Shown: positions 2,890-40,621 of the stretch, piece by piece
How positions within the stretch are numbered: the stretch's first letter is position 1
Layout: each line of letters begins with the position of its first letter
Assembly (NCBI GenBank): GCA_049591295.1
Contig: JBAWEQ010000080.1
Location: 2,238 to 66,237, forward strand
DNA: 64,000 nt
DNA from: Acidobacteriota bacterium
Lineage (GTDB): Bacteria > Acidobacteriota > UBA4820 > DSQY01
Reading direction: 5' to 3'
Notes under the pieces: generated by a model
Databases searched by the model: none
Seen by the model: only the letters and a program-made list of their open reading frames with translations
What the model was told of the DNA's origin: nothing
Position numbers and translations under genes: made by a program

Positions 2890-2956
2890 CCTTGGTGCCT
2901 TGGTGCCTTGGTGCCTTGGTGTCTTGGTGCCTTGGTGTCTTGGTGTCTTGGTGGTG
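2890..2956. repeat. Tandem 9-mer array CCTTGGTG(C/T) x7, contiguous with a REP-like tail GGTGGTGAATCTTTTTCGAATTCCCCTTTCC
   Basis: Direct reading: ccttggtgccttggtgccttggtgccttggtgtcttggtgccttggtgtcttggtgtcttggtgg; intergenic between ferredoxin (end 3049) and the OMP start (2667). Confidence 0.9.
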
Positions 2957-3048
2957 AATCTTTTTCGAATTCCCCTTTCCCCAGACGCGCAAAGGCCCGG
3001 GATCGGCTCCCGGGCCCTCGAACTCCCGTGGCTTTCGCCTAGAGTCGC

Positions 3049-3282
3049 CTACTCTCCGTCGTTACCGATGGCGTCCACCGGACAGGAGGCCTTGGCGTCC
3101 TCGCAGAGCTGCTCCTCCTCGGCGGTTTCGGGCTGCTTCGTCACGAAAGCGTGGCTCGAGTCCTCGTTCATCACGAAGTGGTCCGGCGCGATGGAGATGC
3201 ACGAGTCACACGCGATGCAATTTTCATCCACGTACCACTTGCCGGGTACGCATTCTTCAACCTTCAGGTTCACGTCGGCCAT
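3049..3282 (-). CDS. fdx: Small ferredoxin (single-domain 4Fe-4S/3Fe-4S type)
   Basis: 77 aa; CIACDSCISIAP ... CPVDAI cysteine motifs; acidic C-terminus. Confidence 0.8.
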   Translation of the reverse strand: MADVNLKVEECVPGKWYVDENCIACDSCISIAPDHFVMNEDSSHAFVTKQPETAEEEQLCEDAKASCPVDAIGNDGE

Positions 3283-3470
3283 GTGGAATCCTCCTAAGCG
3301 GGTCGGATGGGTCTGAGAGGGCTCCCCCCTCCTCGATCAAAAGGAGGCAATATAGCCTTCCCCCCCTGGGAAGTCAAGCCGTTGAAACGGCTGCCCTTGA
3401 AACTGGTGGTTCTGGCCCTGGCTGGCTGTCCCGTCTTCCTCCAGGGGACCTTTCGCGCTACCCTTCCAGT

Positions 3471-4817
3471 ATGGCGAAGGTCCTGATCGTGGACGACGAG
3501 GCGGCCATTCGTGAAACCCTCCGGGGCATCCTTGAGCGGCAGGGCTATGCCGTCGTGGAGGCGGCCAGCGCGCGGGCGGGCATCGCGGCGCTGGAGGCGG
3601 AGGCGCCGGTGGACGTGGCGCTGGTGGACCTGCGGCTTCCCGACCTCGACGGCACGGCGGTCCTGGATGCCTCTCTCGAACGGGGGCTCACGACGCCCGT
3701 GGTCATGATCTCGGGCCACGGCTCCATCCCGGCCGCCGTGGACGCCGTGCGGAGGGGGGCCTACGACTTTCTCGAAAAGCCCCTGGACCGCGAACGGCTC
3801 CTCATCGTGCTGCGCAACGCCACGCGCCAGTCGGCCCTGGAGCGCCGGGCCTCGGAGGAGAGCGAGGCGGGGTTCCTGACCGCCTCCCCCCTGATGAAGG
3901 CCGTCCTCTCGGAGGCGCAGCGGGCGGCACCGTCCTACGCACCCATCCTCATCACCGGCGAGACGGGATCGGGCAAGGAGGTGCTCGCGCGCTGGATCCA
4001 CCGGCAGAGCCCCTGGTCCACCGGGCCCTTCGTGGCGCTCAACTGCGCCGCCCTGCCCGAGAACCTCGCCGAATCGGAGCTCTTCGGCCACGCCCGCGGG
4101 GCCTTCACCGGCGCGGAGAGCGCGCGCAAGGGCAAGTTCCTCACCGCCGACGGGGGCACCCTCTTCCTGGATGAGATCGGCGATCTCCCCCTCCCGGTGC
4201 AGGCCAAGCTGTTGCGGGTGCTGGAGGAGGGCGTCGTGGAGCCCGTGGGCTCGGACCGGCCCGTCAAGGTGCGGGTCCGGGTCTTGGCGGCCACGCACCG
4301 GGATCTCAAGGCCAAGGCCAAGGAGGGAAGCTTCCGCGAGGACCTCCTCTTCCGCGTATCGGGATTCCCCCTGCACGTACCGCCGCTGAGGGAGCGGCCG
4401 GAGGACATCCAGATCCTGACCCGCCGCTTTCTGGCCGAGGCGCGAGTCCGGCAGGCGTGGCCCATCGGCGAACCCCCGCCGGCCTTCCTCCGGGTGGTGG
4501 CCCGCCACACCTGGCCGGGCAACGTCCGGGAGCTCCGCTGGGCCGTGGAAAGGGCCGTGCTGTTGGCCGGTCCCGCCATGCCGGGGCCGGAGCACCTTCC
4601 GCCCGAAGTGCGGTTCGGCCAGGGCGAGGCGCCCTCCGGATCCCTCGTGGAGGCGCGGCAGTTTGCGGAGGCCCAGGCCATCCGCCAAGCCCTGGAACAG
4701 GCCCGGGGCAACGTCGCCGCCGCAGCCCGGCTCCTCACCCTCAGCCGCTCCCGCCTCTACGAGCGCCTCGGCGAGCTGGAGATCGACCCCGCCCCCTACC
4801 GCCGGCGCAAGGGGTAG
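3471..4817 (+). CDS. Sigma-54-dependent Fis-family response regulator (NtrC class)
   Basis: REC domain (LIVDDE...D), AAA+ sigma54-activator motifs GETGSGKE, ESELFGHARGAFTGA, C-terminal HTH. Confidence 0.9.
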   Translation: MAKVLIVDDEAAIRETLRGILERQGYAVVEAASARAGIAALEAEAPVDVALVDLRLPDLDGTAVLDASLERGLTTPVVMISGHGSIPAAVDAVRRGAYDFLEKPLDRERLLIVLRNATRQSALERRASEESEAGFLTASPLMKAVLSEAQRAAPSYAPILITGETGSGKEVLARWIHRQSPWSTGPFVALNCAALPENLAESELFGHARGAFTGAESARKGKFLTADGGTLFLDEIGDLPLPVQAKLLRVLEEGVVEPVGSDRPVKVRVRVLAATHRDLKAKAKEGSFREDLLFRVSGFPLHVPPLRERPEDIQILTRRFLAEARVRQAWPIGEPPPAFLRVVARHTWPGNVRELRWAVERAVLLAGPAMPGPEHLPPEVRFGQGEAPSGSLVEARQFAEAQAIRQALEQARGNVAAAARLLTLSRSRLYERLGELEIDPAPYRRRKG

Positions 4818-5174
4818 GGGAAAGGCCGGAATTCAGAAGGCGAAAAGAAAAGGCAGACCACAGAGGCGCAGAGGCACAGAGATAGGGTGGGGCGTGCCGG
4901 GACCTCGCCCGAGATGTTCCCGGGGCTACCCGCTGCGGGCAGCCCTCAGAACGACGCCCACACCGACAATGCGGCGCCCTCCCGAGACCTCCTCCAGGGG
5001 GTCGCTTGCTCAGGATCCCGTCGTGCCCGGAACTGCGTCGTCTTGCACCGGCGGGATTCCGTGTCAGCCGCCCGCTGTAGGCTTGCCACGGAATGACGCG
5101 GCGGGAAGCGTCTCGCTTCTCGCGTCTCGCGCCTCCCTCCACCGTCCCGCGCCCCCGTGCTATCCTGAATCCCC

Positions 5175-5981
5175 ATGGATGCGACCCTGGCCACCGGCGT
5201 GAAGCTCGAGAAGATGCTCCTGAACCGCGCGGGCAGGGCCATCGCGGATTTCGACCTCATCCGAGAGGGAGACCGCGTGGCCGTGGCCCTCTCGGGCGGG
5301 AAGGACTCTTTCAGCCTGCTCAGGCTCCTCTTCCTGCTCCAGCGCCGCTCTCCGGTCTCCTTCGAAATGACGGGGCTCACCATCCACAACGGCTCCGACC
5401 TGTTTCAGGCGGACCTCCTGGAGGAGTACTGTCGCCGCGAGGGCATCCCCCTTCACGTGGAGAGGACCTCCCTCGCGGCCGTCGTGGAGGAGAAGCGGCG
5501 GCCCGGCTCCCCCTACTGCTCCCTCTGCTCGCGCCTCAGGCGGGGAGCCCTCTACGGCGCGGCGCAGGCCCTGGGCTGCAACAAGCTCGCCCTGGGGCAC
5601 CACCTGGACGACGCCGCCGAGACGCTCCTCATGAACCTCTTCTTCGAGGGGAACCTGAAGGCGATGCCCCCGAAGCTGCTGGCGGAGAACGGCAGGATCA
5701 CGCTGATCCGTCCCCTGTTGTACGCCCCCGAGGCCCTGCTCGCCGACTACGCGCGCGAGCAGGGATTCCCCGTCATCGACTGCGGATGCTGGCTCTGCGG
5801 GGAGCAGGAACAGGAGAGGGCGCGGATGAAGGCCCTCATCGCCGAGGTGTCCGGGCGCTACCCGAAAGTTCGTAGCTCCATCCTGTCGGCCCTCACGAGG
5901 CTGGAGCCCCGGTTCCTCATGGACCGTCGCCGGCACGATTTCGAGGAGGAGGAGGCCCCCCGTGGAACCCCTGAAAGCTGA
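5175..5981 (+). CDS. ttcA: tRNA 2-thiocytidine(32) synthetase TtcA (PP-loop ATPase)
   Basis: PP-loop SGGKDS, CSLCSRLRRGALY and C-terminal CGCWLCGE Fe-S cysteine motifs. Confidence 0.85.
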   Translation: MDATLATGVKLEKMLLNRAGRAIADFDLIREGDRVAVALSGGKDSFSLLRLLFLLQRRSPVSFEMTGLTIHNGSDLFQADLLEEYCRREGIPLHVERTSLAAVVEEKRRPGSPYCSLCSRLRRGALYGAAQALGCNKLALGHHLDDAAETLLMNLFFEGNLKAMPPKLLAENGRITLIRPLLYAPEALLADYAREQGFPVIDCGCWLCGEQEQERARMKALIAEVSGRYPKVRSSILSALTRLEPRFLMDRRRHDFEEEEAPRGTPES

Positions 5982-6465
5982 AGACCTGCGAGAGCTCTCG
6001 CGGCGCATCAGCCAGTACCGGCTTTTCTTCTGGATCTACGTCGCCTCGGCGGCCTTCTACGCGGCCAGCGCCGCGGCCCTGACCGCGCAGACCCGGCCGT
6101 CCCCCTACCCGCTCGCCGACGGTTCCCTCGCGTTCGGCCTCTTCGCCCTGCTCGTCGTCTTCCTGGGCCGCTGGGCCGCCTTCCGCCCCTCGGCCCTCCG
6201 CCGTCTACAGTTGGACTCGATGCAGAAGATGGTCCGCTACATCTTCTTCACGTGGCTCTTCCTGTTGGCCATGGGCGAGAGCCTGGGCATGACGGCGGTC
6301 ACGGCGGCGGCCCTGGGTGCGGGGCCGCCCTGGAAGATGCTCCTGCTGTGCCTCTGGCAGGTGCTCGCCGGACTGGTGCTCACCCCAGAGCGGGCGCACT
6401 GGGACCGCGTGCTCTCTCTCTGGCAGCAAACCTTCCCCCCCCCGACCGATAGGAGGATCCCATGA
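5962..6465 (+). CDS. Hypothetical polytopic membrane protein
   Basis: 167 aa, several hydrophobic helices, GC3-rich codon use, 4-nt overlaps with both neighbours (operon-like). Confidence 0.4.
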   Translation: MEPLKAEDLRELSRRISQYRLFFWIYVASAAFYAASAAALTAQTRPSPYPLADGSLAFGLFALLVVFLGRWAAFRPSALRRLQLDSMQKMVRYIFFTWLFLLAMGESLGMTAVTAAALGAGPPWKMLLLCLWQVLAGLVLTPERAHWDRVLSLWQQTFPPPTDRRIP

Positions 6466-6908
6466 GCCGTTCCCTGCTGCGCACCGCTCTGGTCGCCGCG
6501 GCGCTGTGCCTCTCGCTTCCCTTCAGCGCCGAGTTCTCGTGCAACCGCTACGACTTCGCGCTGAACCGGTTCATCCGCCTGGACGCCAAGGCGGGCGACC
6601 TGGCGATCCAGGACGTGGAGTTCCTGTTCCCCTCCTACATCGGTCCCAAGAAGCTGGACATCGAGGGCCGAAACGAGGCCACGGTGGACGTCAAGAATTA
6701 CGGCACCGTCCCCCTTAGGGTTCACGTGGCCATCGCCCTCTTCGACGCCAGCGGCAACCTGGTGGGGTGCGGCGCGACGGGGAGCAAGCTCGGGTACACG
6801 CGCGCCGGAGAGGGCGAGGACTTCCACGTCACGTTCAACTACGTGCACTCCAAGCTGATGAGCGCGAAGTACTTCTACCTGACCGTGGAGACCGAGCCCG
6901 CCAAGTAA
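6462..6908 (+). CDS. Hypothetical secreted protein
   Basis: N-terminal signal peptide MSRSLLRTALVAAALCLSLPFSA; beta-rich composition; no recognisable family. Confidence 0.5.
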   Translation: MSRSLLRTALVAAALCLSLPFSAEFSCNRYDFALNRFIRLDAKAGDLAIQDVEFLFPSYIGPKKLDIEGRNEATVDVKNYGTVPLRVHVAIALFDASGNLVGCGATGSKLGYTRAGEGEDFHVTFNYVHSKLMSAKYFYLTVETEPAK

Positions 6909-7071
6909 GAGGGCAGAGAGAATTCGGGAAAGAAAAAATTCACCACAAAGACACCAAGGGCTTGGGATTGCGAAGTGCGAATGACGGAAATGATGGCCGG
7001 CGACCGGCAACCCCCCGCCCCGGCGTCAACCCGAAGCACCCTTCAGAGGGCTGCTGACTCAGGATCTTAAG

Positions 7072-8484: not shown

Positions 8485-8589
8485 GAGCAGGGCGCTGGAC
8501 GGGATTGGCGAGACGCGAGACGCGAGAGGCGAGACGCAAAAAGCGCGCCCCTTCGTCTGGCGGCGTTTGGCTTTCTGCGTGGCCCCGCC

Positions 8590-9628: not shown

Positions 9629-9695
9629 CCCGTCCTCCCGCCAGGCACCACGAGACCCGTCTCCGGTCAGCCGAGGGCGGACTCTCCGCCAGGGC

Positions 9696-12072: not shown

Positions 12073-12909
12073 TCAGGAGGCGTGCTTCTCCCCGGGATGA
12101 TAGAAGGGGGTCGCCGCCACGTCGCCCCCCATGGACTTCCACATATAAAACCAGCTCTTGGCCGCGTCGGAAACGGCGTGCGAGAGGACCACCTCGGCCA
12201 CGCCGAAGGCGTTGGAGCGGTCATCGAAGGTACTCGAGGAGACCCGCTTCCCGTGCGGGAAATAGCAGAAAAGCACCGCCTGCTCGTAGCGCGGCATGCC
12301 GTCCAGTCTGTGGATCAGGTAGGACCGCAGGTCCCCCGTCAGGGGCGGGCTGTCGTACCCGTCGAAGACGACCACCATGAGGGGCAGCTTGCGCTCCATG
12401 TAGGCGAGGTAGTCCGCCCGCACCTGCGCGGCCCTCGGATCCTGGCCCGCCCGGAGAGGATCGTTGAGCAGGTAGATGAGCCCGGCGGTCATCCCCATGT
12501 GGTAGGCCACCTGCTGGAACGGTTCCGTCGTCTGGAGAAGGGTGGGGACGAGGTCGAATTCCCGCACCGCCGCATCGAGGATGTCCGCCGTGGGCCTGGG
12601 GGCATAGCCCGCCAGGGCGTCGGACACCCCGCGATCCAGGTCAGTCCGATAGGCCAGCAGGGCGTTTCGGAGCGCCACCGGCGCCAGCCGCAGGGTCAGG
12701 TCCGTCATCCTCTTCGTGGTGGCGGGGCCGTAGGCGGCGTCCGCGGGAGCCGCGGCCGGGATGGGAACCGCCGGCGCCAACAGGAGAAGCCCGGCGAGGA
12801 AGAGAAGGAGACAGGGAGACAGGGAGACAGGGAGACAGGCGAAAAAAGGAAAGAGCCGGGGTACCGGGAGGCAGGGGAACCCAGGAGTCGCGGTCATTGG
12901 CTTTCTCAT
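12073..12909 (-). CDS. Hypothetical secreted protein; (GGAGACA)x4 heptamer repeat in the region encoding its signal peptide
   Basis: C-terminal globular 278 aa of the artefactual ORF 12073..14259, starting MRKPMTATPG...; the upstream remainder of that ORF is antisense to icd. Confidence 0.45.
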   Translation of the reverse strand: MRKPMTATPGFPCLPVPRLFPFFACLPVSLSPCLLLFLAGLLLLAPAVPIPAAAPADAAYGPATTKRMTDLTLRLAPVALRNALLAYRTDLDRGVSDALAGYAPRPTADILDAAVREFDLVPTLLQTTEPFQQVAYHMGMTAGLIYLLNDPLRAGQDPRAAQVRADYLAYMERKLPLMVVVFDGYDSPPLTGDLRSYLIHRLDGMPRYEQAVLFCYFPHGKRVSSSTFDDRSNAFGVAEVVLSHAVSDAAKSWFYMWKSMGGDVAATPFYHPGEKHAS

Positions 12910-14387: not shown

Positions 14388-14766
14388 GGTCGTACCTCCT
14401 CTGGTGGAAGCGGGCGAAGCGCTGGTCCTGTCCGGAGCTACCCCCTGGGATCCCCATAAAAGGGGGTTTCGCCTTTGCCCGGCAAGGCTTGCATGGGTTC
14501 CGCACCCGCGTCAGCCCCGTAGTATAGCCGTGCGCCGGGAGGGGGGTCAACTCGGTGACAGATCAGGGCTGATAGGTGAGGGAAAAGGGACAGGGGACAG
14601 GGGAAAGTGAGGAGCCGGAAGCCGGCAAGGCGGTGGCCTTGTTCAATTCGCGATTCAAATCCTCCGTGTCTTGGCCTCTCCGTGTCGTATTTCTCCTGAC
14701 TTCCGCCTTCACCCTCCCCCTGCCTCTATTGCCAGGGTTCCCTAGCTATCCTATGATGAGTCTAAA

Positions 14767-16635: not shown

Positions 16636-16873
16636 GAGGGTAGGCGGAAGGAAAGGATTCACCACCGAGACACCAAGGCACGAAGGAATTAGAGATCGGG
16701 GCTTCTCAGCGCCCTCGTCTCTTGCCCCTTGCTCGCCGCAATGTGGGAGATGCCTCGATGATCGTTCTCCAGAACGCGATCCTTCGAAGGCCCATTTATC
16801 ATCCATTCTCCATCATCCTCCTGTCCCCTGTCGCTCGTCCCCTGCTACAATAGGCCCGGGGAGGTCCCTCTCG

Positions 16874-19029: not shown

Positions 19030-19563
19030 ATGGAGAGAATCCTTCGTCCGCTCGCCGCCGTTCTCCCGCTTCTGCTCCTGCTCGCCGCCTGCGCCGAGCG
19101 CGGCTCCCAGGGTCCGGGGGCCGCGCAGACCGCGGCCGGGCCGTCCGCCGAGGCCCCCGTCGTGCAGACCGGGGGGGGGCTCTACCCCACGGGGGAGCGC
19201 CTGGCCCGCTACCTCCGCTACAAGTACCCGGCCTACGAGAACGGCCGTTGGGCCGTAGGCTGGAATTCCAGGATTCCCTGGATGGCCATGATGGGCAGGG
19301 GCGTGGAGGAGCATTGGCCCTTCTCCGTCACCCTGGCGGGCCTGGGCGCCGAGGCCGGCACCAGCGAGCAGGCTTACGACCAGCTCGATCCGAGCAGTTT
19401 CGTGGGGCTCATCTGGCTGGAGCCGATGGTCACCCCCAAGGGGCTCCTGGAAGCCGTGAAGGTGACCTTCCGCCCCATCGGGAGCCTCCCTTACGTGCAG
19501 ACCATCATCGCCTGCGAACCGGGCCTGTCGATCATCCCCCAGGCCGCTCCCGAAGGGCGGTAG
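19030..19563 (+). CDS. Hypothetical lipoprotein
   Basis: Signal peptide with lipobox LLLAACA. Confidence 0.5.
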   Translation: MERILRPLAAVLPLLLLLAACAERGSQGPGAAQTAAGPSAEAPVVQTGGGLYPTGERLARYLRYKYPAYENGRWAVGWNSRIPWMAMMGRGVEEHWPFSVTLAGLGAEAGTSEQAYDQLDPSSFVGLIWLEPMVTPKGLLEAVKVTFRPIGSLPYVQTIIACEPGLSIIPQAAPEGR

Positions 19564-20045
19564 GGAGCCACCACCAAGGCCCCAAGACCCGAAGGGGAGA
19601 CTGAGGCAGTCAGGAGGCAACCGACAGGGCAAGCTCCGCGATCTTCGCGTCTCGCGTCTCGCCTCTCGCCTCTCGCCTCTCGCCTCTCGCGTCTCGCGTT
19701 TTGCGTTTCGCGTTTTGCCTCTCGCTCCTGTCTGGGGCAAATGGCGCTTCGGGGATAGAGTCCGGTTCACGGCGGGCCTTTCCTCTGCCACGGGCCGGTG
19801 GGCGCCCTTGATCCGCCTCTCCAAAGGAGGAGGGCGGAAGGCGGGTGGGGCATTTACCACCCTCCAGCCCCTCGCAGGCTGGCCATGGGGTTCCACCCGA
19901 GGGGGCGGCGTTATATTAGGCCCCTGGTTGTCGCGGGGCCTTGCAAACCAGGACAAAGGGGAATTGGGTGAGCCACCACGATCTACATTCCCGCTCCCAG
20001 CGCGGCCCGTCACAGGTTTCGATCCAGGGCCTCTTTCCCAGGCGA

Positions 20046-20995: not shown

Positions 20996-21183
20996 AGGCT
21001 CATGGCGAATTCAACAAGACGGCCGACGGCGAGCCGCTTCGGGATGCCGAGATGAGGAGATGAGGAGATGTCGAAGGGAACCGGCGGGAGGTGCTGCGGG
21101 TTCTTCTTGTCCCCCGTCCCTTGTCCCCTGTCCCCTGTCGCGCCTCGCGCTCCTCACTCCTCACTATCCCACGAGGGTCCCAC

Positions 21184-22272: not shown

Positions 22273-23044
22273 GACCGTCTTCTGCCGGACACCGGCCCTC
22301 GCCGACGTCACCACGCACTACTGCCCCGGGTGCACCCACGGCGTCATCCACCGGCTCGTGGCCGAGGTGGTGGACGAGCTGGGGCTGAGGGAGCGCACCA
22401 TCGGCATCGCTCCCGTGGGCTGCTCGGTCCTCGCCTACAACTACTTCACCACGGACTTCCAGGAGGCCTCCCACGGACGGGCGCCGGCCGTGGCCACGGG
22501 GGTCAAGCGGGCGCGTCCCGACCTCATCGTCTTCTCCTACCAGGGGGACGGCGATCTCGCCTCCATCGGCATGGGAGAGATCGTCCACTGCGCCAACCGG
22601 GGCGAGAAGATCACGGTGATCTTCGTGAACAACGCCATCTACGGCATGACGGGCGGCCAGATGGCCCCCACCACCATGCCGGGCCAGATCGCCACGACGT
22701 GCCCGCTGGGGCGCGACGTGGAGCTTGCCGGCTACCCCATCCGCGTGGTCGAGCTGCTCTCCACCCTGAGAACCCCGGCCTTCATCGCCCGAGCGTCGGT
22801 CCACACACCCCTCTACACGGTCAACGCCAAGGAGATGCTCCGGCGCGCCTTCCGCCATCAGGCGGAGGGCCGTTGCTTCTCCCTCGTGGAGATCCTCTCC
22901 ACCTGCCCCACGAACTGGGGCCTGCCTCCCGCCGAGGCCACGCAGTGGCTGGAGCAGAACATGCTCCCCTACTACCCTCTGGGGATCTTCAAGGAACCGG
23001 GCGGCGAGGACCGCGCCCCCAGCCCCCTGGGAGGACGAAAGTGA
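22265..23044 (+). CDS. korB: 2-oxoacid:ferredoxin oxidoreductase beta subunit (ThDP-binding)
   Basis: YCPGCTHG ... GDGD ... ThDP motif. Confidence 0.9.
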   Translation: MLETVFCRTPALADVTTHYCPGCTHGVIHRLVAEVVDELGLRERTIGIAPVGCSVLAYNYFTTDFQEASHGRAPAVATGVKRARPDLIVFSYQGDGDLASIGMGEIVHCANRGEKITVIFVNNAIYGMTGGQMAPTTMPGQIATTCPLGRDVELAGYPIRVVELLSTLRTPAFIARASVHTPLYTVNAKEMLRRAFRHQAEGRCFSLVEILSTCPTNWGLPPAEATQWLEQNMLPYYPLGIFKEPGGEDRAPSPLGGRK

Positions 23045-23140
23045 AGAACCACCAAGACACCAAGACACGGACAGACCTGGGGTCCTTTGCAGCCGAGGAT
23101 TTCTTCTTGGTGCCTTCGTGCCTTTGTGGTGAATCCTTTT
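23045..23140. repeat. REP-like palindromic element inserted between korB and korC (caccaagacaccaag / cttggtgccttcgtgcc arms plus GGTGAATCCTTTTCC tail)
   Basis: Inverted copies of the CACCAAGACACCAAGG family seen at six other gene 3' ends in this window. Confidence 0.7.
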
Positions 23141-23152
23141 CCGGAGCTTTCC

Positions 23153-27367: not shown

Positions 27368-27487
27368 AGGGAACCGAGATGAGGAGATGAGGTAATGAGG
27401 TAATGAGGTGATGAGGGGATGAGGTCTCGCCCGATCTTCCTTCCATCATCCATCATCCATCATCCATCATCCCCCAAGGAGCCGGCC

Positions 27488-28000
27488 ATGAGCGAACCGA
27501 AGGACCAGATCCGTGAGATCCTCAAGAAAGCCTACCAGATCGAGGTGGACGGCTACACCTTCTACTCCCTGGCCGCCGACAAGTCCACCAAACCGGCCGT
27601 CCAGGAGCTCTTCGAAAAGCTCGCCAAGGACGAGACCGAGCACAAGACCTACCTGCGCGAGGTGATGCGGCGCTACGAGGCCGAGGGGACCGGAGCCTTC
27701 ACGGTGGACCGGCGGGATCCCCAGGTCAAGGCCTTCACCGATGCCATCTTCACCCAGAAGTTCAAGGAGCAGGCCCACGGAGCGGCATTCGAGCTGGGCG
27801 CCCTCTCCGTGGGCATGCAGCTCGAGACCAACGCCATCGCCCACTTCTCCGCCGCGGCCGAGGCGGCCTCCGAGCGAGAGGTCCAGGAGTTCTACCGATT
27901 TCTCGCCCAGTGGGAACGGGGCCACTTCGAGGCCCTTCAGGCTCTCCACGCCCTCGTCCGGGCCGACTTCTGGGAGCAGGGGGGCTTCGCGCCGTTTTAG
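27488..28000 (+). CDS. Ferritin-like / rubrerythrin-family di-iron protein (no rubredoxin domain)
   Basis: Paired E...ExxH motifs (KDETEH, WERGHFE); 170 aa; TAG stop at 27998-28000. Confidence 0.65.
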   Translation: MSEPKDQIREILKKAYQIEVDGYTFYSLAADKSTKPAVQELFEKLAKDETEHKTYLREVMRRYEAEGTGAFTVDRRDPQVKAFTDAIFTQKFKEQAHGAAFELGALSVGMQLETNAIAHFSAAAEAASEREVQEFYRFLAQWERGHFEALQALHALVRADFWEQGGFAPF

Positions 28001-28144
28001 ACGCGAGACGCTAGACGCGAGACGCTGGACGCGAGGCGTTAGACGCCAGATGCGAGACGCGAGACGCAAAGAGCTTTCTTCACGTCTCGTAGTTCCCCAG
28101 TCCCCTCACCCGGGCCCTTGCTCCCTACCCGCCCCCTCCCTGAG

Positions 28145-28174
28145 TTGACAGCCCCTTTCTTCGGCTTTTATAAT
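28145..28174 (+). promoter_or_regulatory. Consensus sigma70 promoter TTGACA-N18-TATAAT upstream of pilB
   Basis: ttgaca gcccctttcttcggcttt tataat, about 45 nt upstream of the pilB ATG; stands out as AT-rich in a 67% GC background. Confidence 0.6.
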
Positions 28175-32333: not shown

Positions 32334-32360
32334 CGAGGGAAACCAAGGAGCAGGGAACCT

Positions 32361-32404: not shown

Positions 32405-33226
32405 TGGCTTCGTCTCCTCAGATCACCCGTGCACCTTGTCCTAGAGGGAAGAAGAGGAGCGAGACGTGAGCCGCGAGACGCAAGACGCGAAACGCGAGAC
32501 GCGACGAGGCAAAGCATCCTACGCGGGTCATCCTGAGGGCCCCTTCGGAGGGCCGCTGGCTCAGGGTCCCGTAGCAGAGAGACCACCGGCGGCACCGGAA
32601 CTGCGGGATCCTGTGCTAGTTGCCCGTTGTGGGCTTGCCACAGGATGACGGGAAAAAGGGGGCCAGACGCGAGGCGCGAGGCGCAAGACGTGAGACGCGA
32701 GGGAGCCAACGGTCGAATGGCCACCCCTCTTTTCCGTCATGGCTCCCTAAGCGTTGTTGAGAAAGTCCCCCTTCCGAGGCCGTCATTCGGGCGAGCGGAG
32801 CGAGTCCAGAATCCGAAGCCACGGCGGCGGACAGGAAAGGCTGGGGCCGCAGGTCGCGGTCTAAAGCCGGCATCCCGGCCTCTCGATCCCGTTCACCCGC
32901 AAAAACGACGGGGCTCTCTGGCGCGCAGACTTCCTCCCCGTTTCCCGGCCTTCCGACCTCCTACTACTCCGACACCAATAGGGTTGACTCTTTGCAAAGG
33001 ACAGCTTCGAAGTGGGGATGGGAGAGCAGCGAGGCCGAAGCCTGAGCCTGCCCCCGCGAAGGCGGGGGGGCCTGCTTGCGAAACCAGCCCACCGCGGTGG
33101 GCTTTCCCCAGCCGAGCGCCGAGAGGGAAGGGGCCAACCCCTTCCCTCTCGGATTGGTAACTTCCCAACCTCCGCCTCCGCGCGCTATCATTTTCTCCAT
33201 GACGATTGCCGGGAATCCCTAAGGCC

Positions 33227-36227: not shown

Positions 36228-36418
36228 GGGAAAGAAGATTCCCATTTTAGAAAGTGAAAAGAATGCACCACCAAGACACCAAGGCACCAAGGGATCGTAA
36301 ATCGAATCTTGGAAAAAGCTCCTCCGGCCATCCCGCGTCTCCTAAGCATCTCATCCCCTCATCCCCTACTCACCTCATCACCTCATCACCTCATCACCCC
36401 ATCACCCCCGAGGCCTGA

Positions 36419-37420
36419 ATGACCGATGCCGCCGGTCCCGCCCCCCCGGAACTGAGCCTCCTGGTCCCCCTCTACAACGAGGAGGAGAACCTGGAACCCC
36501 TGCTGGAGCGCATCCAGGAGGAGATGGCCCGCCTGGGACGGAGCTACGAGGTCGTGCTCGTGGACGACGGCTCCCGAGACAGCACGGTGGCGCGGCTCAA
36601 GAGGGCCGTCGCCCAACGCCCCCACCTCCGCGTCGTCCTCCTCCGGCGCAATTCCGGCCAGACCGCCGCCCTCGCGGCGGCCATCGAGCACTCCCGGGGG
36701 GCCGTCCTCGTCCCGCTGGACGGTGACCTCCAGAACGATCCCGCCGACATCCGCAAGCTGGTTTCGAAGCTCGACGAGGGCTTCGACGTGGCCAGCGGCT
36801 GGCGCCGCCACCGCCGGGACCCCTTCTTCACGCGCATTCTGCCCTCGAAGATCGCCAACGGGCTCATCTCCCTCATCTCGGGAGTCAAACTGCACGACTA
36901 CGGCTGCACCCTCAAGGCCTACCGGCGCGAGGTGCTGGCCCCCGTGGTGCTGTTGGGAGAGATGCACCGCTTCATCCCCATCCTGGCCACGTGGCAGGGG
37001 GCGCGCGTGGCCGAGGTGGAGGTGACCCATCATCCCCGCGTGGCGGGCAAGAGCAAGTACGGCCTCGGCCGCACCCTCAAGGTCGTCCTCGACCTCCTGA
37101 CCATCAAGTTCATGGGCTCCTTCCTCACCAAGCCCATCTACGCCTTCGGCGGAGCGGGCGTGGGGCTCTGGCTCCTCTCGGCTGTATTGGCCGCCTACAC
37201 GCTTTGGCAGAAGCTGGCCTACGGCGTCTGGGTCCACAACAACCCCCTGCTCCTCGTGGCCATCTTCATCGCTCTCGTAGGGATGCAGCTCATCATGATG
37301 GGCCTTCTGGGCGAACTCCTCATCCGCATCTACTTCGCCAGCTCCGGAACAACCCCCTACGTCATCCGCGAGGTTCTCGAGTCGCCTGGGGGCGGTGGAG
37401 AGGTGGAGGCTGAAGGGTGA
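36419..37420 (+). CDS. GT2 polyprenyl-phosphate glycosyltransferase (ArnC/GtrB/DPM1-like) with C-terminal TM anchor
   Basis: LSLLVPLYNEEENL ... VVLVDDGSRD ... DGDLQNDP; the stop codon lies inside the first GGGTGAA repeat unit. Confidence 0.8.
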   Translation: MTDAAGPAPPELSLLVPLYNEEENLEPLLERIQEEMARLGRSYEVVLVDDGSRDSTVARLKRAVAQRPHLRVVLLRRNSGQTAALAAAIEHSRGAVLVPLDGDLQNDPADIRKLVSKLDEGFDVASGWRRHRRDPFFTRILPSKIANGLISLISGVKLHDYGCTLKAYRREVLAPVVLLGEMHRFIPILATWQGARVAEVEVTHHPRVAGKSKYGLGRTLKVVLDLLTIKFMGSFLTKPIYAFGGAGVGLWLLSAVLAAYTLWQKLAYGVWVHNNPLLLVAIFIALVGMQLIMMGLLGELLIRIYFASSGTTPYVIREVLESPGGGGEVEAEG

Positions 37421-37500
37421 AGGGTGAAGGGTGAAGGGTGAAGGGTGAAGGGTGAAGGGTGAAGGGTGAAGGGTGAAGGGTGGAGGGTGAAGGGTGAAGG
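37414..37500. repeat. Heptamer microsatellite (GGGTGAA) x12
   Basis: Perfect tandem array beginning within the last codons of the GT2 gene. Confidence 0.95.
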
Positions 37501-37560
37501 GTGAGGAGTAGAGAGCCCATGACCCATCGGCCAGCAGCCATGGATTCAAGAAGAATCATG

Positions 37561-37660
37561 GCGCTCCCGTGGGGCGGGCACCCCGGCCCGCCGCTCTCCC
37601 GCTCCGCTGAACCGTGGGGCGGGCGCCCCCGCCCGCCGCTCCCCGGCTCCAACCGGCGCG
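37561..37660. repeat. Pair of GC-rich palindromic REP units (GTGGGGCGGGCGCCCCCGCCCGCCGCTCCCC) upstream of the RAYT gene
   Basis: Each unit contains the inverted repeat GGCGGGCG / CGCCCGCC. Confidence 0.8.
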
Positions 37661-37724
37661 CCCCAAGAAGGCTATTTCCAATGAAAAGAAAGCCTCCTCA
37701 ACGAGGCGAAGCTTCACTCCGGCC

Positions 37725-38438
37725 ATGGAACGGCTGACGACCTATCGTCGCCGCCTACCCCATTTTCATGTGAGGGGTGCCCGCTACTCCCTCACGTTCC
37801 GCTTATCACCCCGGCAATCCCCGCCGCTATCCTCCAAAGAGTGCGAGGCCATGGTCTCTCATATCCACAAGATGGGCCCGGGCAAGGTTGAAGCCTTCGT
37901 CGTTATGCCCGACCACGTGCATCTTCTCTATTCCACCACGAGAGATGAGCATCTGATCAAGACATTACAATCCCTCAAGGGCTCGTCTTCCCATACCCTC
38001 ACCAGCCGCTTCGGCCGCCGGTCACCCATATGGCAGGATGAAACCTATGATCACCTCATCCGCAATGAGCCGGAATTCAGCACAGCTTGGCTCTACATAG
38101 AGGGCAATCCCGTTCGAAAAGGCCTCGTTAGCCGCATCACAGACTATCCCTGGTCCAGCGCTTGGAAGGGAGGGGGGGTCGCGGCCGAGGGCGGCCGCGC
38201 CACAGCCGAGACCGGCCGCGCCACAGCCGAGGGCGGCCGCGGTACGGAAGAGAATCATGATGAACTCGTGGGGCGGGCGCCCTCGCCCGCCGCTCCCCAT
38301 GGTCACCCCACCGTGGGGCGGGCGCCCTCGCCCGCCATCCCTCATCCCCAATCAGACCCGCAACCCCTTGATGGTCTCGCGGCCGAGGGCGGCCGCGCCA
38401 CAGCCGAGGGCGGCCGCGCCACGGGCGAAGGGAAATAG
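37725..38438 (+). CDS. REP-associated tyrosine transposase (RAYT; IS200/IS605 TnpA-like HUH enzyme) with a repeat-encoded C-terminal tail
   Basis: PDHVHLLY (HUH) and WQDETYDHLIRNEPEFSTAWLYIEGNPVRKGLVSRITDYPWSSAW align with E. coli YafM/TnpA-REP (PEHMHCIW ... WQPRFWEHAIRN ... YIYINPVKHGWV ... DWPFSTF). The reading frame then continues without a stop through REP copies (GRAPSPAAPHG..., AAEGGRATAEGGRA). Confidence 0.8.
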   Translation: MERLTTYRRRLPHFHVRGARYSLTFRLSPRQSPPLSSKECEAMVSHIHKMGPGKVEAFVVMPDHVHLLYSTTRDEHLIKTLQSLKGSSSHTLTSRFGRRSPIWQDETYDHLIRNEPEFSTAWLYIEGNPVRKGLVSRITDYPWSSAWKGGGVAAEGGRATAETGRATAEGGRGTEENHDELVGRAPSPAAPHGHPTVGRAPSPAIPHPQSDPQPLDGLAAEGGRATAEGGRATGEGK

Positions 38439-38441
38439 GCC

Positions 38442-40313
38442 ATGTGCGGCATAGCGGGCTTCGCGCTGAACCGGCCGGCTGATCGCGAGGCGCTCGCGGC
38501 CATGACGCGGAGCCTCGTGCACCGGGGCCCCGACGGGGAAGGCTTCTTCGTGGAAGAGGGCGTGGGGCTGGGCCACCGGCGCCTGGCCATCCTGGACCTT
38601 CCGGGCGGGGCCCAGCCCATGGCCAACGAGTCGGGCTCGGTGGTGGTGGTCTTCAACGGCGAGATCTACAACTTCCAGGCCCTGCGCGCGGAGCTGGAGG
38701 CCAAGGGACACCGCTTCGCCACGCGCTCGGACACGGAGGTGCTCGTGCACCTCTACGAGGAGGAGGGCGAGGATTTCCTCCCCAGGCTGAACGGCATCTT
38801 CGCCTTCGCCCTCTACGACCGCGAGCGCCGGAGCCTCCTGCTGGCGAGGGACCCGCTGGGAGTGAAGCCGCTCTATTATGCCGAGGTGCCGCGAGGGCTC
38901 CTGTTCGGCTCCGAGCTCAAGGCCCTGCGCGCCCATCCCGATTTCCCGACTGACCTGGACCTGGATGCCCTGAAGGCCTACTTCACCTGCGAATACGTCC
39001 CCGCTCCCCTCTCCATCTACCGTTCGGCCAGAAAGCTCCTGCCCGGCCACGCTCTGCTGGCGGGACCGGAGGGAATCCGGGTCCGTCCCTACTGGCACTG
39101 GGCCATTCCTCAGGAGCTTGGGCTGTCCCGGGCAGAAGCGGCGGAAAAACTCCGGGAAACGGTCCTGCGAAGCGTCAAGGGCCAGCTCATCTCCGACGTG
39201 CCCCTGGGGGTGTTCCTGAGCGGCGGCGTGGATTCCAGCATCGTCGCGGCCTGCATGGTGGAAGCGGGGGGGCGCGTGGAGAGCTTCTCCATCGGCTTCG
39301 AGGACCCCTCCTTCGACGAGAGCGCGTACGCCCGGACGGCGGCGCGGCACCTGGGTTGCGGCCACCACGAGCACACCTTCTCCGAGAAAGAGCTGCTGGC
39401 CGAGGTCCCGCGCGTACTCGGCCTTCTCGACGAACCCTTTGCCGACCCCTCGCTCTTTCCCACCGCCCTGCTCTCCCGCTTCGCCCGGCAGCGCGTGACC
39501 GTGGCCCTGGGCGGGGACGGCGGCGACGAGCTCTTCGCGGGATACCCGACCTACTGGGTGCACCACCGCTTCGGCCTCTACCGGTCCCTGCCGGGCTGGG
39601 CGCGACGCGCCGGGATGGCCGCGGCGGACCGCCTCCTGCCCGTCTCCCACGCGAACCTCACCCTGCCCTACAAGCTCCGCAAGTTCAGGGACGGGGCTGA
39701 GTATCCAATGCCGCTGCGGCACCACCTCTGGCTCGGCTCGTGGACCCCGGAGGGGCTCGCGCGGCTTATGCCAGGTGCCGGTGCCGTGGCCCTCTCCGAG
39801 AAGTGGATCCCGGACGCGCCGCAGAAGGATCCCGTCACCTCGGCCCAGTGGCTGGACCTCCACACCTATCTGCTGGAGGACATCCTCGCCAAGGTGGACA
39901 GGGCCAGCATGATGGCCTCCCTGGAGGCCCGCGTGCCCCTGCTCGATCCCGAGATCGTCCGCCTCGCCTTCGCCATGCCCCACGACTGGAAGCTCCGCGG
40001 GCGCGCGGGCAAGGCGGTCTTCAAGGAGGCCTTCGCCGGCCGCTTCCCGAAGGGCTTCCTCGACCGCCCCAAAAAGGGCTTCGGCATCCCCGTCGCCCGC
40101 TGGCTCACGGGCCCCCTGCGGCCCATGGCCGAGGAACTGCTCTCCGATGAGGTGCTGGGCAGGGTCCCCTTCCTCAAACCGGACGAACCCCGCCGCCTCT
40201 GGCGCGAACACCTCGCCCGCAAGGCCGACCATCGCAAACCCCTCTGGACCCTGCTGTGCTTTCTCGACTGGTGGAGGAGGGACCACAAGCGGATAGGAGG
40301 AAGGAGCGAATGA
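38442..40313 (+). CDS. asnB: Asparagine synthase (glutamine-hydrolysing) family amidotransferase
   Basis: MCGIAGF N-terminal nucleophile, SGGVDSS PP-loop; 623 aa. Confidence 0.9.
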   Translation: MCGIAGFALNRPADREALAAMTRSLVHRGPDGEGFFVEEGVGLGHRRLAILDLPGGAQPMANESGSVVVVFNGEIYNFQALRAELEAKGHRFATRSDTEVLVHLYEEEGEDFLPRLNGIFAFALYDRERRSLLLARDPLGVKPLYYAEVPRGLLFGSELKALRAHPDFPTDLDLDALKAYFTCEYVPAPLSIYRSARKLLPGHALLAGPEGIRVRPYWHWAIPQELGLSRAEAAEKLRETVLRSVKGQLISDVPLGVFLSGGVDSSIVAACMVEAGGRVESFSIGFEDPSFDESAYARTAARHLGCGHHEHTFSEKELLAEVPRVLGLLDEPFADPSLFPTALLSRFARQRVTVALGGDGGDELFAGYPTYWVHHRFGLYRSLPGWARRAGMAAADRLLPVSHANLTLPYKLRKFRDGAEYPMPLRHHLWLGSWTPEGLARLMPGAGAVALSEKWIPDAPQKDPVTSAQWLDLHTYLLEDILAKVDRASMMASLEARVPLLDPEIVRLAFAMPHDWKLRGRAGKAVFKEAFAGRFPKGFLDRPKKGFGIPVARWLTGPLRPMAEELLSDEVLGRVPFLKPDEPRRLWREHLARKADHRKPLWTLLCFLDWWRRDHKRIGGRSE

Positions 40314-40335
40314 GCAGCCCAAAGCGAGGAATCCC

Positions 40336-40470
40336 TTCCCGTGGGGCGGGCGCCCTCGCCCGCCGCTCCCCGACTCCGATCAACCGTGGGGCGGGCGCCC
40401 CCGCCCGCCGCTCCCCGACTCCGACCAACCGTGGGGCGGGCGCCCCCGCCCGCCACTCTTCCGCTCTGGA
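40336..40470. repeat. Three tandem 45-bp copies of the same GC-rich palindromic REP (BIME-like cluster)
   Basis: ccgtggggcgggcgccc(t/c)cgcccgccgctccccgactccga(t/c)caa x3. Confidence 0.85.
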
Positions 40471-40621
40471 GAGCGCTCCTACAAGGGCCTAGAGCATGCG
40501 AAGCTCACACGCCAAGGATTTCACTCCCATTCGCCATTCGCCATTCGAAATCCGAAATCCCTTCGTGCCTTCGTGTCTTGGTGGTGAATTTTCCTTCCCC
40601 CCTTGGCCCGAGCTTCTCCTC

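Follow-up and report, generated by a model that had tools for sequence, protein, structure and literature searches.

The dispersed repeat in this 64,000-nt window (the whole stretch of DNA analyzed) is, judging by its sequence, part of a hairpin-forming insertion family present in many bacterial phyla. Its copies here are probably gene-less ('solo'), mostly half-decayed members of an IVS/REPIN-like selfish palindromic insertion element, and not terminators. The repeated sequence is ATTCACCAC followed by (CAAGRCAC)n, and the window has it once as a full hairpin and at least seven times in half or degenerate form:

2868-2975, minus strand: copy A, a half element expanded by slippage, with (CCTTGGTG)x8 and then GTGAATC at 2890-2960; its minus-strand order is purine-rich leader, ATTCACC head (GGTGAAT in plus reading, 2953-2959), eight tandem octamers (2890-2953), CCAAG-ATC-CTTGG stub and tail GATTGCGAAGTGCGAA (2868-2883); downstream of the stop of a ferredoxin gene (3049-3282, minus strand).
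4818-4881, plus strand: copy B, degenerate, with CACAGAGG-type units and CCACAGAGGCGCAGAGGCACAGAG at 4858-4881; its purine-rich leader runs from the TAG stop (4815-4817) of a sigma-54 activator gene.
6909-6981, plus strand: copy C, a half element of leader, ATTCACCACAAAGACACCAAGG (6938-6959), stub CCAAGGGCTTGG (6954-6965) and tail GATTGCGAAGTGCGAA (6966-6981), the tail being common to copies A and C; 3′ of the TAA stop of the gene at 6462-6908.
14661-14684, minus strand: a weak degenerate copy, CACGGAGAGGCCAAGACACGGAGG, in the spacer upstream of a T2SSE ATPase gene.
16636-16690, plus strand: copy D, a half element with the leader GGAAGGAAAGG and ATTCACCACCGAGACACCAAGGCACGAAGG at 16657-16686; 3′ of the TGA stop of a T2SSE/MshEN ATPase gene.
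19564-19595, plus strand: a degenerate copy, CCACCACCAAGGCCCCAAGACCCGAAGG, 3′ of the TAG stop of the ORF at 19030-19563.
23045-23152, plus strand: copies E/F, the only full element in the window, with an A/C arm at 23047-23068 (plus), a 37-nt loop, a G/T arm at 23106-23134 (minus) ending in GGTGAAT, a T-rich trailer and an SD; it occupies the whole spacer between an oxidoreductase beta stop (23042-23044) and the gamma ATG at 23153.
36228-36310, plus strand: copy G, a half element of leader, ATGCACCACCAAGACACCAAGGCACCAAGG at 36263-36292 and a CCAAGGG...CTTGG stub; 3′ of the TGA stop of a pilR-like sigma-54 activator.
40527-40600, minus strand: copy H, a half element with its G/T arm on the plus strand (CTTCGTGCCTTCGTGTCTTGGTGGTGAAT at 40561-40589), preceded by (CCATTCG)x3, which repeats the head motif ATTCRCC, and by (CGAAATC)x2; upstream of a plus-strand gene.

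All seven copies listed by the initial annotation are present at or near the positions it gave, and we found two further degenerate copies, at 19568-19595 (plus) and 14661-14684 (minus). The copies are non-random. Across the window, a 13-mer with up to 2 mismatches matched 17 times against 1.64 expected (0 of 100 shuffles), the 16-mer head 5 times against 0.69, and arrays of at least two units plus CAC occurred 6 times against 0.005 (200 shuffles). The chromosome is Acidobacteriota-like, with a window GC content of about 66%. The window is not from an IncP plasmid, and megablast returned no plasmid match for it.

We agree that this is a dispersed extragenic family of the REP/MITE kind, distinct from the GC-rich REPs flanking the Y1_Tnp (RAYT-like) gene at 37725-38180. 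Several details of the first description need revision. Its tandem 9-mer is an 8-mer (TRF: period 8, 8.0 copies, 94% matches), and its korB and korC are the beta and gamma subunit genes of a 2-oxoacid:ferredoxin oxidoreductase. The two sequences seen between these genes as a head-to-head pair do form a pair, but as the two arms of one hairpin filling the 108-nt beta-gamma spacer. A hairpin had been ascribed to an internal CAAGACACCAAGG duplication; pairing is instead with the second, inverted arm, which in most window copies has been lost or reduced to a CCAAG...CTTGG stub.

The reported location close 3′ of stop codons, with consistent polarity, stands for most copies. From stop to TTCACC head, the distance is 2 nt for E, 4 nt for the copy at 19568, 21 nt for D, 29 nt for C, 35 nt for G and 40 nt for B. 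The exception is A, whose head lies 89 nt past the stop with a GC-rich hairpin in between. H and F have the opposite orientation and lie upstream of plus-strand genes. Orientation is uniform because the palindrome is polar: whichever strand is read, the A/C-rich arm comes first.

To see the family beyond the window, we scanned one genome per species for the exact 21-mer ATTCACCACMRAGRCACSAAG and obtained at least 118 loci, compared to about 4 expected by our own estimate. Among the matches listed, record labels include Acidobacteriota, Planctomycetota, Alpha-, Gamma- and Zetaproteobacteria, Chloroflexota, Verrucomicrobiota and others, although many phylum labels derive from MAGs and at least two of these look wrong. 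The listed matches also include isolates of Azospirillum, Paramagnetospirillum and Methylobacter, and their loci range from 41 to 72% GC. The full form is an inverted pair of arms of about 30 nt, each consisting of TTCACC and three tandem units of 8-9 nt (3 x CRC-N-RAG-R), with a loop between them and GGTGAA as the partner head. The 118 loci listed hold 289 arms, 180 of which combine into 90 (+,-) pairs whose loops have a median length of 44 nt; exactly three units are present in 182 of the 289.

The arms of an element co-vary. Arm identity is 0.87 within elements and 0.58 between them, and the unit types of both arms agree in 106 of 118 elements. In 40 arm pairs, 88.3% of cells are paired, compared to 81.6% in shuffles and 35-46% in slid controls, and double-change cells number 121 versus 59.6 in shuffles (0 of 500 shuffles). 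Mismatches between arms show no G-U bias, so pairing at the RNA level is putative. Loop sequences are not conserved between copies within one genome. We looked for target-site duplications at the elements and found none, which makes classical cut-and-paste unlikely.

A minority of copies have loops of about 400 nt that hold a GxxExxY / PDDEXK_3 (Pfam) nuclease gene of about 120 codons, with its start codon immediately next to the final unit of the A/C-rich arm. In the arm-selected loci, each of the seven GxxExxY genes or fragments lies within arms or adjoins them. Starting from the protein, 64 of 77 loci have a significant bracketing inverted repeat of the same architecture, with unit variants that include CACAGAGG, CGCAGAGR, CGCAAAG and CAATGAGG; the protein-selected loci, 80 in all, are those that best matched a query made from arm-bearing cassettes, so the 83% applies to that subfamily. 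A structure model of the protein (pLDDT 91.9) has a minimal PD-(D/E)XK core with D72, E82 and K84 invariant. In the literature we searched, we found no description of a link between a hairpin repeat and this nuclease gene.

Solo copies and a cassette of the same MAG share their unit pattern in two cases (L007/L051 and L061/L033). Of the 32 solo loops that measure 60 nt or more, only 2 contain a recognizable gene fragment, so that direct descent of solo copies from cassettes is thinly supported. No GxxExxY gene or remnant occurs in the window or in the loci of its syntenic relatives. The cassette can be stably inherited: three Magnetospirillum-like contigs with 75-80% nucleotide identity share one site for it, flanked by a HAD hydrolase gene and miaA. 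Arm type weakly follows protein phylogeny, and the nearest protein neighbor shares the arm type 22 times out of 38, versus 12.3 by chance.

Comparison with syntenic relatives of the window shows that the element is gained, lost and replaced at one and the same site. The PORb|PORg spacer, filled in the window by the 108-nt CACCAAGA hairpin, holds in L207 (96% nucleotide identity) a 175-nt CACAGAGG hairpin of another unit type and in L208 a degenerate copy of 102 nt. The element is absent from L209, where the genes overlap (-11 nt), and from L210, where the spacer is 10 nt and spacers measure 8-17 nt across the nine consecutive operon genes compared. At the site of copy D, L208 and L209 have AGTGAGG...CCTCATC arrays instead. 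The region of copy G in L086 has unrelated arrays directly upstream of the next gene, in a locus that begins at the copy G spacer and leaves the gene upstream out of view. Between copy H and its counterpart in L086, a close relative, 1 of 29 positions differs, and the REP block just upstream differs.

We propose that elements of this selfish family insert into the very short spacers of compact operons or at the ends of their genes, and that copies would sit just past stop codons because insertion falls there. Gain, loss and replacement then follow quickly, and tandem units slip, as in copy A with its 8 units. The elements are presumably co-transcribed with host genes; their arms would pair, leaving the insert looped out and close to neutral, and RNase III may cleave the stem, as it does in IVS. 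By analogy with RAYT and REPs in a REPtron, the GxxExxY nuclease might spread or maintain the family. Just as possible would be the opposite order, with the gene homing into hairpins that are already present. The window copies are best seen as relics without demonstrated host function.

Could the cell instead keep these repeats as 3′-UTR or inter-cistronic RNA hairpins that stop transcription, hold off 3′ exonucleases or serve as RNase III sites uncoupling cistrons? Under the same reading, unpaired A/C-rich, G-poor half copies could act as Rho-loading (rut-like) tracts. The position just 3′ of stops, the co-variation of arms and the left A-run and right T-run of many full copies outside the window are compatible with it, as are the RNase III cleavage of IVS stems (PMC4990558) and the predominance of REPs downstream of genes (PMC3733652). 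Some elements persist at orthologous sites despite sequence turnover (L065/L081 and L087/L089), which would also fit a host function. Where a single arm directly follows a long ORF, the A/C sense outnumbers the G/U sense by 28 to 6, but this polarity follows from the geometry of the palindrome. The terminator role initially suggested does not agree with our results: the sole full window copy, E/F, is inside an operon whose subunits must be co-expressed, and a terminator consensus scan gave 8 matches versus 10.2 expected and 9 versus 9.8, with only two weak loop matches at the copies. RNA folds are no better than shuffles (z = +0.38 for E/F, -1.2 to +1.3 for half copies), except for H (-3.1), and the arm mismatches lack a wobble bias. 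The same operon works without any spacer in L209 and L210, and a host RNA element leaves the GxxExxY genes in loops unexplained. We consider it unlikely.

Individual CRC-N-RAG units, 8-9 nt apart, might be read singly by a DNA-binding protein or the ribosome, tuning the coupling of neighboring genes. The reader could be of the ribbon-helix-helix style (like MetJ or omega), or the units could be tandem SD-like motifs with anti-SD-like partners in RNA. CRC and RAG are indeed invariant in both arms beyond what pairing requires, and it is at N and spacer positions that mismatches cluster. AAGG, GAGG or GGAG occurs within the units, the last of which adjoins the start codon in cassettes. Sister arrays in the window are literal SD/anti-SD repeats: (GATGAGGT)n includes GAGGTGAT, and (CTCATCAC)n is identical to AUCACCUC, the 3′ tail of 16S rRNA. 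However, we identified no binding protein, copies are not tied to promoters, and in L209 and L210 the operon functions in their absence. Within operon spacers, the arm next to the stop is the purine-rich one and the arm next to the following start is the pyrimidine-rich one, an order opposite to that expected of an SD. Such a role strikes us as distinctly improbable. We regard it as highly improbable that the arrays are long simple-sequence repeats, non-mobile and of no shared origin, generated locally by polymerase slippage in a lineage that tends to form 7-8-nt units. Arrays of period 6-9 built from other units (GCGAGAC, GATGAGGT, GGTGAAG, GGGGACA, TCCATCA, CCATTCG) do number 32 in the window, copy number varies, and close relatives have different unit types and periods at a shared site; heptamer-rich repeats of this kind are known in scattered bacteria (Mrazek 2007, as cited in PMC4679880). 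Yet slippage accounts for the expansion of an array and not for its origin: the 21-mer includes the non-repeated head ATTCACC and recurs far above expectation in many lineages, arms prefer exactly three units and form inverted, co-varying pairs, and they bracket one protein family.

The selfish palindromic element that we favor has partial counterparts among known systems. Bacterial MITEs (Correia, ERIC, RUP) are likewise small, non-coding and intergenic, have terminal inverted repeats and are co-transcribed with their neighbors, as is probably the case here. Target-site duplications and a conserved interior are features of MITEs, which descend from insertion sequences of the DDE-transposase type. 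In contrast, the present family has no such duplications, its loops are unconserved within a genome, and no transposase is involved. TAACTGA heptamers, intergenic in Beggiatoaceae, Cyanobacteria and Bacteroidetes, resemble it, as do long simple-sequence repeats, in having tandem 7-8-nt intergenic units in distant phyla, no known vehicle and variable copy number, and post-transcriptional roles have been proposed for them (PMC4679880). The TAACTGA arrays differ in being direct repeats just upstream of start codons, without an inverted partner, a fixed head motif or an associated gene family.

The IVS of 23S rRNA (e.g., in Coxiella burnetii and Leptospira, with an S23p / four-helix-bundle ORF) are built like the complete element: both are inserts of about 0.43-0.5 kb with complementary termini and a long stem, in which a short tandem run of 7-9-nt units with or after an AG-rich SD-like motif directly precedes the small loop ORF; in both systems, repeat number varies between strains. 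That of Coxiella is a selfish element of 428 nt with a 28-bp terminal stem and three tandem heptamers before a small ORF, is excised by RNase III, and is regarded as of unknown mobility (PMC4990558). However, IVS sit in 23S rRNA gene helices and their excision by RNase III is shown, whereas the present family occupies protein-gene spacers, where any excision is hypothetical; its unrelated PD-(D/E)XK GxxExxY nuclease replaces the four-helix bundle, and most of its copies are cargo-free. REPs and REPINs share with it the many short extragenic palindromes, mostly downstream of genes, as singlets and inverted doublets without target-site duplication. The REPtron, in which a RAYT (Y1 HUH transposase) gene is flanked by its own REPs, likewise has a small dedicated enzyme gene bracketed by repeats that are also dispersed without it (PMC3116915; PMC3733652). 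Unlike REPs, the present arms have no GTAG or CGTC tag but a TTCACC/GGTGAA head and three tandem sub-repeats, and the gene encodes a PD-(D/E)XK nuclease and not an HUH tyrosine transposase. REPs are also largely species- or family-specific, whereas the present sequence recurs nearly unchanged across phyla.

The window is a chromosomal segment of ~66% GC. It carries a pilB-pilT-pilC-pilS-pilR cluster and a 2-oxoacid:ferredoxin oxidoreductase/NADH-dehydrogenase-like operon, and also encodes SelA, an asparagine synthase and a RAYT-like Y1 transposase; the proteins closest to its own carry the names Acidobacteriota and Thermoanaerobaculales. An exact-sequence search with PilT of the window gave no match. 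The initial annotation had listed sites of a dispersed repeat in this stretch, and we found the repeat at all of them. In their common orientation, the copies run from a purine-rich leader (GGAAAGGA) through a head, ATTCACC, into tandem octamers, CAC-N-AAG-R. The tandem unit had been given as a 9-mer; its true period is 8 nt, with TRF calling 8.0 copies at 2890-2953 and 2.4-3 at the other sites. Motif counts in the window were 17, 5 and 6, compared to 1.64, 0.69 and 0.005 expected by chance, and two further degenerate copies were added.

Copies of the repeat in the window
2890-2960, minus strand: copy A, with a tail GATTGCGAAGTGCGAA
4858-4881: copy B, a CACAGAGG variant
6938-6959: copy C, with the same tail as copy A
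14661-14684: added degenerate copy
16657-16686: copy D
19568-19595: added degenerate copy
23047-23068, plus strand: copy E, head AACCAC
23106-23134, minus strand: copy F
36263-36292: copy G
40561-40589, minus strand: copy H
Copies A, C, D, F, G and H have the head (A)TTCACC or ATGCACC and 2-8 units.

Apart from the variant heads and units listed, the window copies show the family pattern, a TTCACC head leading into tandem units, CRC-N-RAG-R, each 8-9 nt long; we call this combination an arm. Their arrays are also long simple sequence repeats (LSSR, STRR-like), with a head-to-tail unit of 5-11 nt and a length greater than chance allows, but the head motif, the inverted arm and the identity across lineages fall outside that label. 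An inverted second arm is present in the window only at E/F, which had been described as a head-to-head pair at 23045-23140 between korB and korC. Two inverted copies do lie there, but they are the arms of a single hairpin rather than two elements, and the genes on either side encode the oxidoreductase beta and gamma subunits (PORb and PORg). The hairpin takes up the entire 108-nt spacer between them, and its arms pair except at the variable positions, each of which is mismatched. All other copies are half elements that keep at most a CCAAG...CTTGG stub. An IncP plasmid context was dismissed, as megablast against plasmids gave no match and the genes are oxidoreductase subunits.

The family extends far beyond this genome. 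An exact scan with ATTCACCACMRAGRCACSAAG, a pattern of ~19 nt of information, over one genome per species (596 Gb) returned at least 118 loci against a chance estimate of ~4. Labels of the listed matches name many phyla, and three isolate genera (Azospirillum, Paramagnetospirillum and Methylobacter) are represented. Phylum counts from MAG titles call for caution, because the labels of two contigs, L211 and L213, are doubtful. Both (JBLNBG010000142.1, labeled Bacteroidales, and DATIKR010000118.1, labeled Omnitrophota) have 66-67% GC, are syntenic with a Magnetospirillum contig (L061) at 75-80% nucleotide identity and are probably mis-binned under wrong taxonomy labels. GC content of the listed loci ranges from 41 to 72%. 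Viral contigs yielded eight matches. The listed loci hold 289 arms, 180 of which make 90 pairs of an A/C-rich arm and then its reverse complement (median loop 44 nt, range 0-347), with 109 single; exactly three units occur in 182 of the 289. Among these matches, ~93% of pairs are solo elements, without a gene, as are the window copies.

On the left side of the head, family members share no conserved sequence. Several 8-kb loci contain two or three elements, and in ten displayed same-locus pairs the copies have common arms and mostly different loops (exceptions L041 and L012). A Haloferula MAG has two nearly identical full elements ~200 nt apart (L100:5020-5123 and 5221-5324), a whole-element local tandem duplication. 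Searching the accessible literature by sequence string gave unrelated primers and no relevant paper. A blastn search of plasmids with the consensus hairpin found no match, the query probably having been masked by the low-complexity filter. At gathering thresholds, Rfam detected no rRNA or other family in the window and no family in 15 full-hairpin loci.

The two arms of an element change together. Arm identity, here equivalent to complementarity, is 0.87 within elements and 0.58 between them, and the unit types of both arms agree in 106 of 118 elements. For covariation we took 40 arm pairs of fixed length and replaced their loops by GAAA. Standard pairs fill 88.3% of cells compared to 81.6% after shuffling, 121 cells are changed on both sides compared to 59.6, and the covariation score is 0.259 compared to 0.137; none of 500 shuffles reaches any of these three measures, and sliding the partner lowers pairing to 35-46%. 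The regular expression that picked the arms fixes CRC and RAG and leaves the N and R positions free, and it is at N and R that compensatory change falls. The TTCACC and GGTGAA ends pair with each other (alignment columns 3-7). Mismatches show no G-U excess in either orientation (wobble counts 39 versus 29, transversions 47), so the pairing can be assigned to neither the RNA nor the DNA level. Both arms also retain the motif beyond the needs of pairing. Head and CRC-N-RAG unit are strongly conserved across lineages, yet genomes that are 96% identical can differ in unit type.

A terminator-like role, as initially suggested, is not supported for these copies. An intrinsic terminator has a stable GC-rich stem leading directly into a U-tract where a transcription unit ends. 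A terminator scan showed no enrichment and no convincing site at the copies, and the full copy, E/F, is intra-operonic. Its fold has a z score of +0.38, half copies are unstructured, and folding is no better than in shuffles except at H, where the head pairs with an upstream (CCATTCG)n array. The uniform orientation of the copies follows from the polarity of the palindrome; across lineages, single arms right after a long ORF are in the A/C sense in 28 cases and in the other in 6. Sigma-54 promoters, NtrC sites, parS, DnaA boxes, ARG boxes, Chi and attC do not match the element in spacing or symmetry.

We compared the window with four syntenic relatives, L207 (96% nucleotide identity to the window in PORb) and L208, L209 and L210 (82% each; identity between L208 and L209 is 93%).

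Spacers at orthologous sites in the window and its relatives
PORb-PORg, window: 108-nt CACCAAGA hairpin
PORb-PORg, L207: 175-nt hairpin with CACAGAGG/CGCCGAGG units and a different loop
PORb-PORg, L208: 102-nt degenerate CACCAAG copy, 3' end as in the window
PORb-PORg, L209: absent, -11 nt overlap
PORb-PORg, L210: 10 nt
Fer2-Fer4_11, window: ~28 nt, gene bounds approximate
Fer2-Fer4_11, L207: CTCCTCA arrays
Fer2-Fer4_11, L208 and L209: full CACCAAGG hairpin in each
Fer2-Fer4_11, L210: 8 nt
T2SSE-HAD (compared in the window, L208 and L209), window: copy D
T2SSE-HAD, L208 and L209: AGTGAGG...CCTCATC arrays

Across nine consecutive operon genes compared, L210 spacers measure 8-17 nt; the matching spacers in the window's clade span 85-300 nt and run from a purine-rich array across a loop to a pyrimidine-rich one. 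Compact operons evidently tolerate 100-300-nt inserts between translationally coupled genes, and the speed of spacer turnover becomes visible. In two other pairs of loci (L065/L081 and L087/L089) the element is kept at its site and both arms have changed in step. Between copy H and its counterpart in a close relative (L086), 1 of 29 positions differs; the adjoining REP block is not the same in the two. The PORb-PORg insertion replaced the last codons of PORb, which is why the head adjoins the stop. At the palindrome edges of 112 elements we detected no target-site duplication over shuffles: direct repeats of 0 nt occur in 67 (72.8 expected) and of at least 2 nt in 14 (~12 expected).

Some elements carry a gene in the hairpin loop. 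At L010, the ORF between the arms is a hit to TIGR04256, 'GxxExxY protein' (1.7e-41), and to Pfam PDDEXK_3 (1.3e-39). Running tblastn over all arm-selected loci gave seven GxxExxY genes or fragments; six are bracketed or directly abutted by arms, and the seventh (L041) starts ~100 nt past a hairpin. At L061, no gap separates the A/C arm from the start codon (CACCAAGGCACCAAGATG), and ~25 nt lie between the stop and the G/T arm. The string of the window copies also flanks GxxExxY genes at L061 and L007, and solo copies and a cassette within one MAG have a common unit pattern. Beyond these ~0.45-kb cassettes, no autonomous element with arms 0.5-3 kb apart was seen. The window itself contains no GxxExxY/PDDEXK_3 gene by tblastn (E <= 1) or profile HMM (E <= 10).

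As an independent sample, we selected by protein alone the best 80 metagenome loci. CAC-N-RAG arms lie on both sides in 24 and on one side in 8 of these 80, fractions that describe the subfamily nearest to the arm-bearing queries. By our reading of the sequences, most of the remainder appear to have a like architecture, with units CGCAGAGR, CGCCGAGR, CGCAAAG, CAATGAGG or CATGAAG. For 64 of 77 full-length genes in this sample, the bracketing inverted repeat is better than in all 30 shuffles. Arms are translated as spurious peptides (HHQGTKDTK..., ...LGVLVVN), a burden for annotation, and they probably break metagenome assemblies, as most carrier contigs measure 1-2 kb. We withdrew a cross-phylum transfer read from an 81%-identical "Bacteroidales" GxxExxY protein, whose contig is syntenic with the Magnetospirillum contig.

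The GxxExxY protein has an invariant D...ExK triad, and its model is a confident minimal PD-(D/E)XK fold (pLDDT 91.9). Its structural neighbors, LHK-Exo, Cas4 and lambda exonuclease, are only weak PD-(D/E)XK hits by fold; a PDB search by sequence found no relative. TIGR04256/PF13366 is a large family, for which one search at E <= 1e-10 gave more than 5,000 relatives. The literature we found says of its function only 'unknown' and describes multiple transfers across divisions (PMC3424549). Inverted tandem arrays that bracket genes may be a wider phenomenon: judging gene identities from translated sequence, we saw 7-9-mer arrays (CGCAGATGA units) around a folK-like kinase (L198:2336-2998), AAAACAG units around a PIN-domain-like protein (L011:528-1280) and, on a viral contig, GGACTCA units around an FkbM-like methyltransferase (L126:1255-1979).

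Two known systems resemble these elements. The Coxiella 23S rRNA intervening sequence (IVS) is a 428-nt selfish element with a 28-bp terminal stem, in which an AG-rich SD-like motif and three tandem heptamers (GACAGAT) precede a small ORF (S23p); its repeat number differs between strains, and RNase III excises it (PMC4990558). Complete members of our family likewise have a terminal complementary stem and tandem 7-9-mers before a small loop ORF, so that GxxExxY cassettes follow the same plan with other cargo. In contrast, the window copies show the stem or the repeat part alone, and they lie between protein-coding genes rather than in a 23S rRNA helix (9, 25 or 45). The other close parallel is the REPtron, in which REPs surround the RAYT gene presumed to spread them (PMC3733652), although its enzyme class differs. 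REPs are defined as 20-40-nt palindromes with an unpaired GTAG or CGTC tag at one end (PMC3733652), whereas our arms lack such a tag and end in TTCACC/GGTGAA. The Y1_Tnp gene of the window (37725-38180) is flanked by CCGTGGGGCGGGCGCCC repeats and not by the element, upholding the earlier view that the family is distinct from the GC-rich REPs of the RAYT; no cognate RAYT flanked by the element occurs in the window. MITEs differ in having target-site duplications and internal sequence conserved among the copies of one genome, where loops of this family usually vary.

Our analysis demonstrates a non-random distribution, spread across lineages, arm covariation, an association with GxxExxY genes, and gain, loss and replacement at individual sites. 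The best reading is that the family is an IVS/REPIN-like selfish palindromic element whose solo and half forms populate the window. In this reading, slippage explains the growth of the arrays and part of their decay. The elements would be co-transcribed with host genes and may be looped out or processed by RNase III, and the GxxExxY nuclease may play a part in their spread. Among bacterial extragenic palindromes, this family would extend the REP/RAYT picture by a third type with a different enzyme, and it opens a route to the old question of how rRNA intervening sequences arose and move.

How cassettes and solo copies relate is a separate matter. Several points speak against a simple decay of cassettes into solo copies. 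Only 2 of 32 long loops retain a gene remnant, and there is no GxxExxY gene in the window or at its relatives' loci. Arm type tracks protein phylogeny weakly, and Magnetospirillum-like genomes inherit the cassette stably at one site. The reverse, in which the gene homes into pre-existing hairpins, is equally possible. Tentatively, and with doubt outweighing confidence, we propose that GxxExxY (PDDEXK_3) proteins could be the dedicated nucleases of an unrecognized class of ~0.45-0.5-kb palindromic selfish elements. Each element would be a hairpin, built from three tandem SD-like octamers, around a single nuclease gene, and the elements would give rise to gene-less hairpins in large numbers within intergenic spacers of many phyla. 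They would then be a PD-(D/E)XK counterpart of RAYT/REP and a free-living relative of the rRNA IVS. If true, this would account for cross-phylum arm identity and wholesale site replacement through homing with flank co-conversion. If the link holds, it also gives TIGR04256/PF13366, a large 'unknown function' family, its first functional context.

Other dispersed 7-8-nt tandem arrays (GCGAGAC, GATGAGGT/CTCATCAC, GGGGACA/GGAGACAG, TCCATCA and GGTGAAG x14.7) make the window's spacers a patchwork, at 2750-2827, 5108-5135, 8508-8537, 12807-12839, 19645-19725, 21049-21165, 27378-27472, 27999-28067, 32459-32702, 36341-36406, 37402-37504 and 61515-61736. They tend to be purine-rich after stops and pyrimidine-rich before starts. 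Those of GCGAGAC, GATGAGGT, CACAGAGG and GGTGAAG look like the same vocabulary, resembling arm variants near GxxExxY genes (CGCAGAGR, CAATGAGG) or repeats of the head GGTGAA. At 36341-36406 and 27378-27425, (CTCATCAC)n also reads (AUCACCUC)n, which we take to be the 3' tail of 16S rRNA (anti-Shine-Dalgarno). The complementary array, (GATGAGGT)n, repeats a perfect extended SD sequence (GAGGTGAT), and the head GGATTCACCACCAAG resembles GGATCACCTCCTTA; these likenesses may be coincidence.

The RAYT-like gene lies within 37565-38431, flanked by GC-rich REPs that recur every 45 nt (CCGTGGGGCGGGCGCCCnCGCCCGCC) and by GCCGAGGGCGGCCGCGCCACA repeats of 21 nt. Another cluster of REPs (40337-40471), which follows the asparagine synthase gene, is different in L086. 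An 845-aa ORF at 190-2727, whose first codon positions are 93% GC, has no match in Pfam and may encode a low-complexity protein or be no genuine gene. A 177-aa ORF (19030-19563) that lies between SelA and the following conserved gene has high GC3 and no Pfam match; called genes at this position in L208 and L209 include no counterpart, the spacer there being 263-301 nt. Minus-strand glycosyltransferases and an RmlD-like reductase occupy 52000-58400, where GC is 49-53% and GC skew strongly negative. This is probably a horizontally acquired surface-polysaccharide island, and none of the other 7-8-nt arrays occurs in it (52-58 kb). Upstream of pilB, right after a GCGAGAC array, 28145-28174 contains a perfect sigma-70 consensus (TTGACA-18-TATAAT, 12/12) that is conserved in L207.
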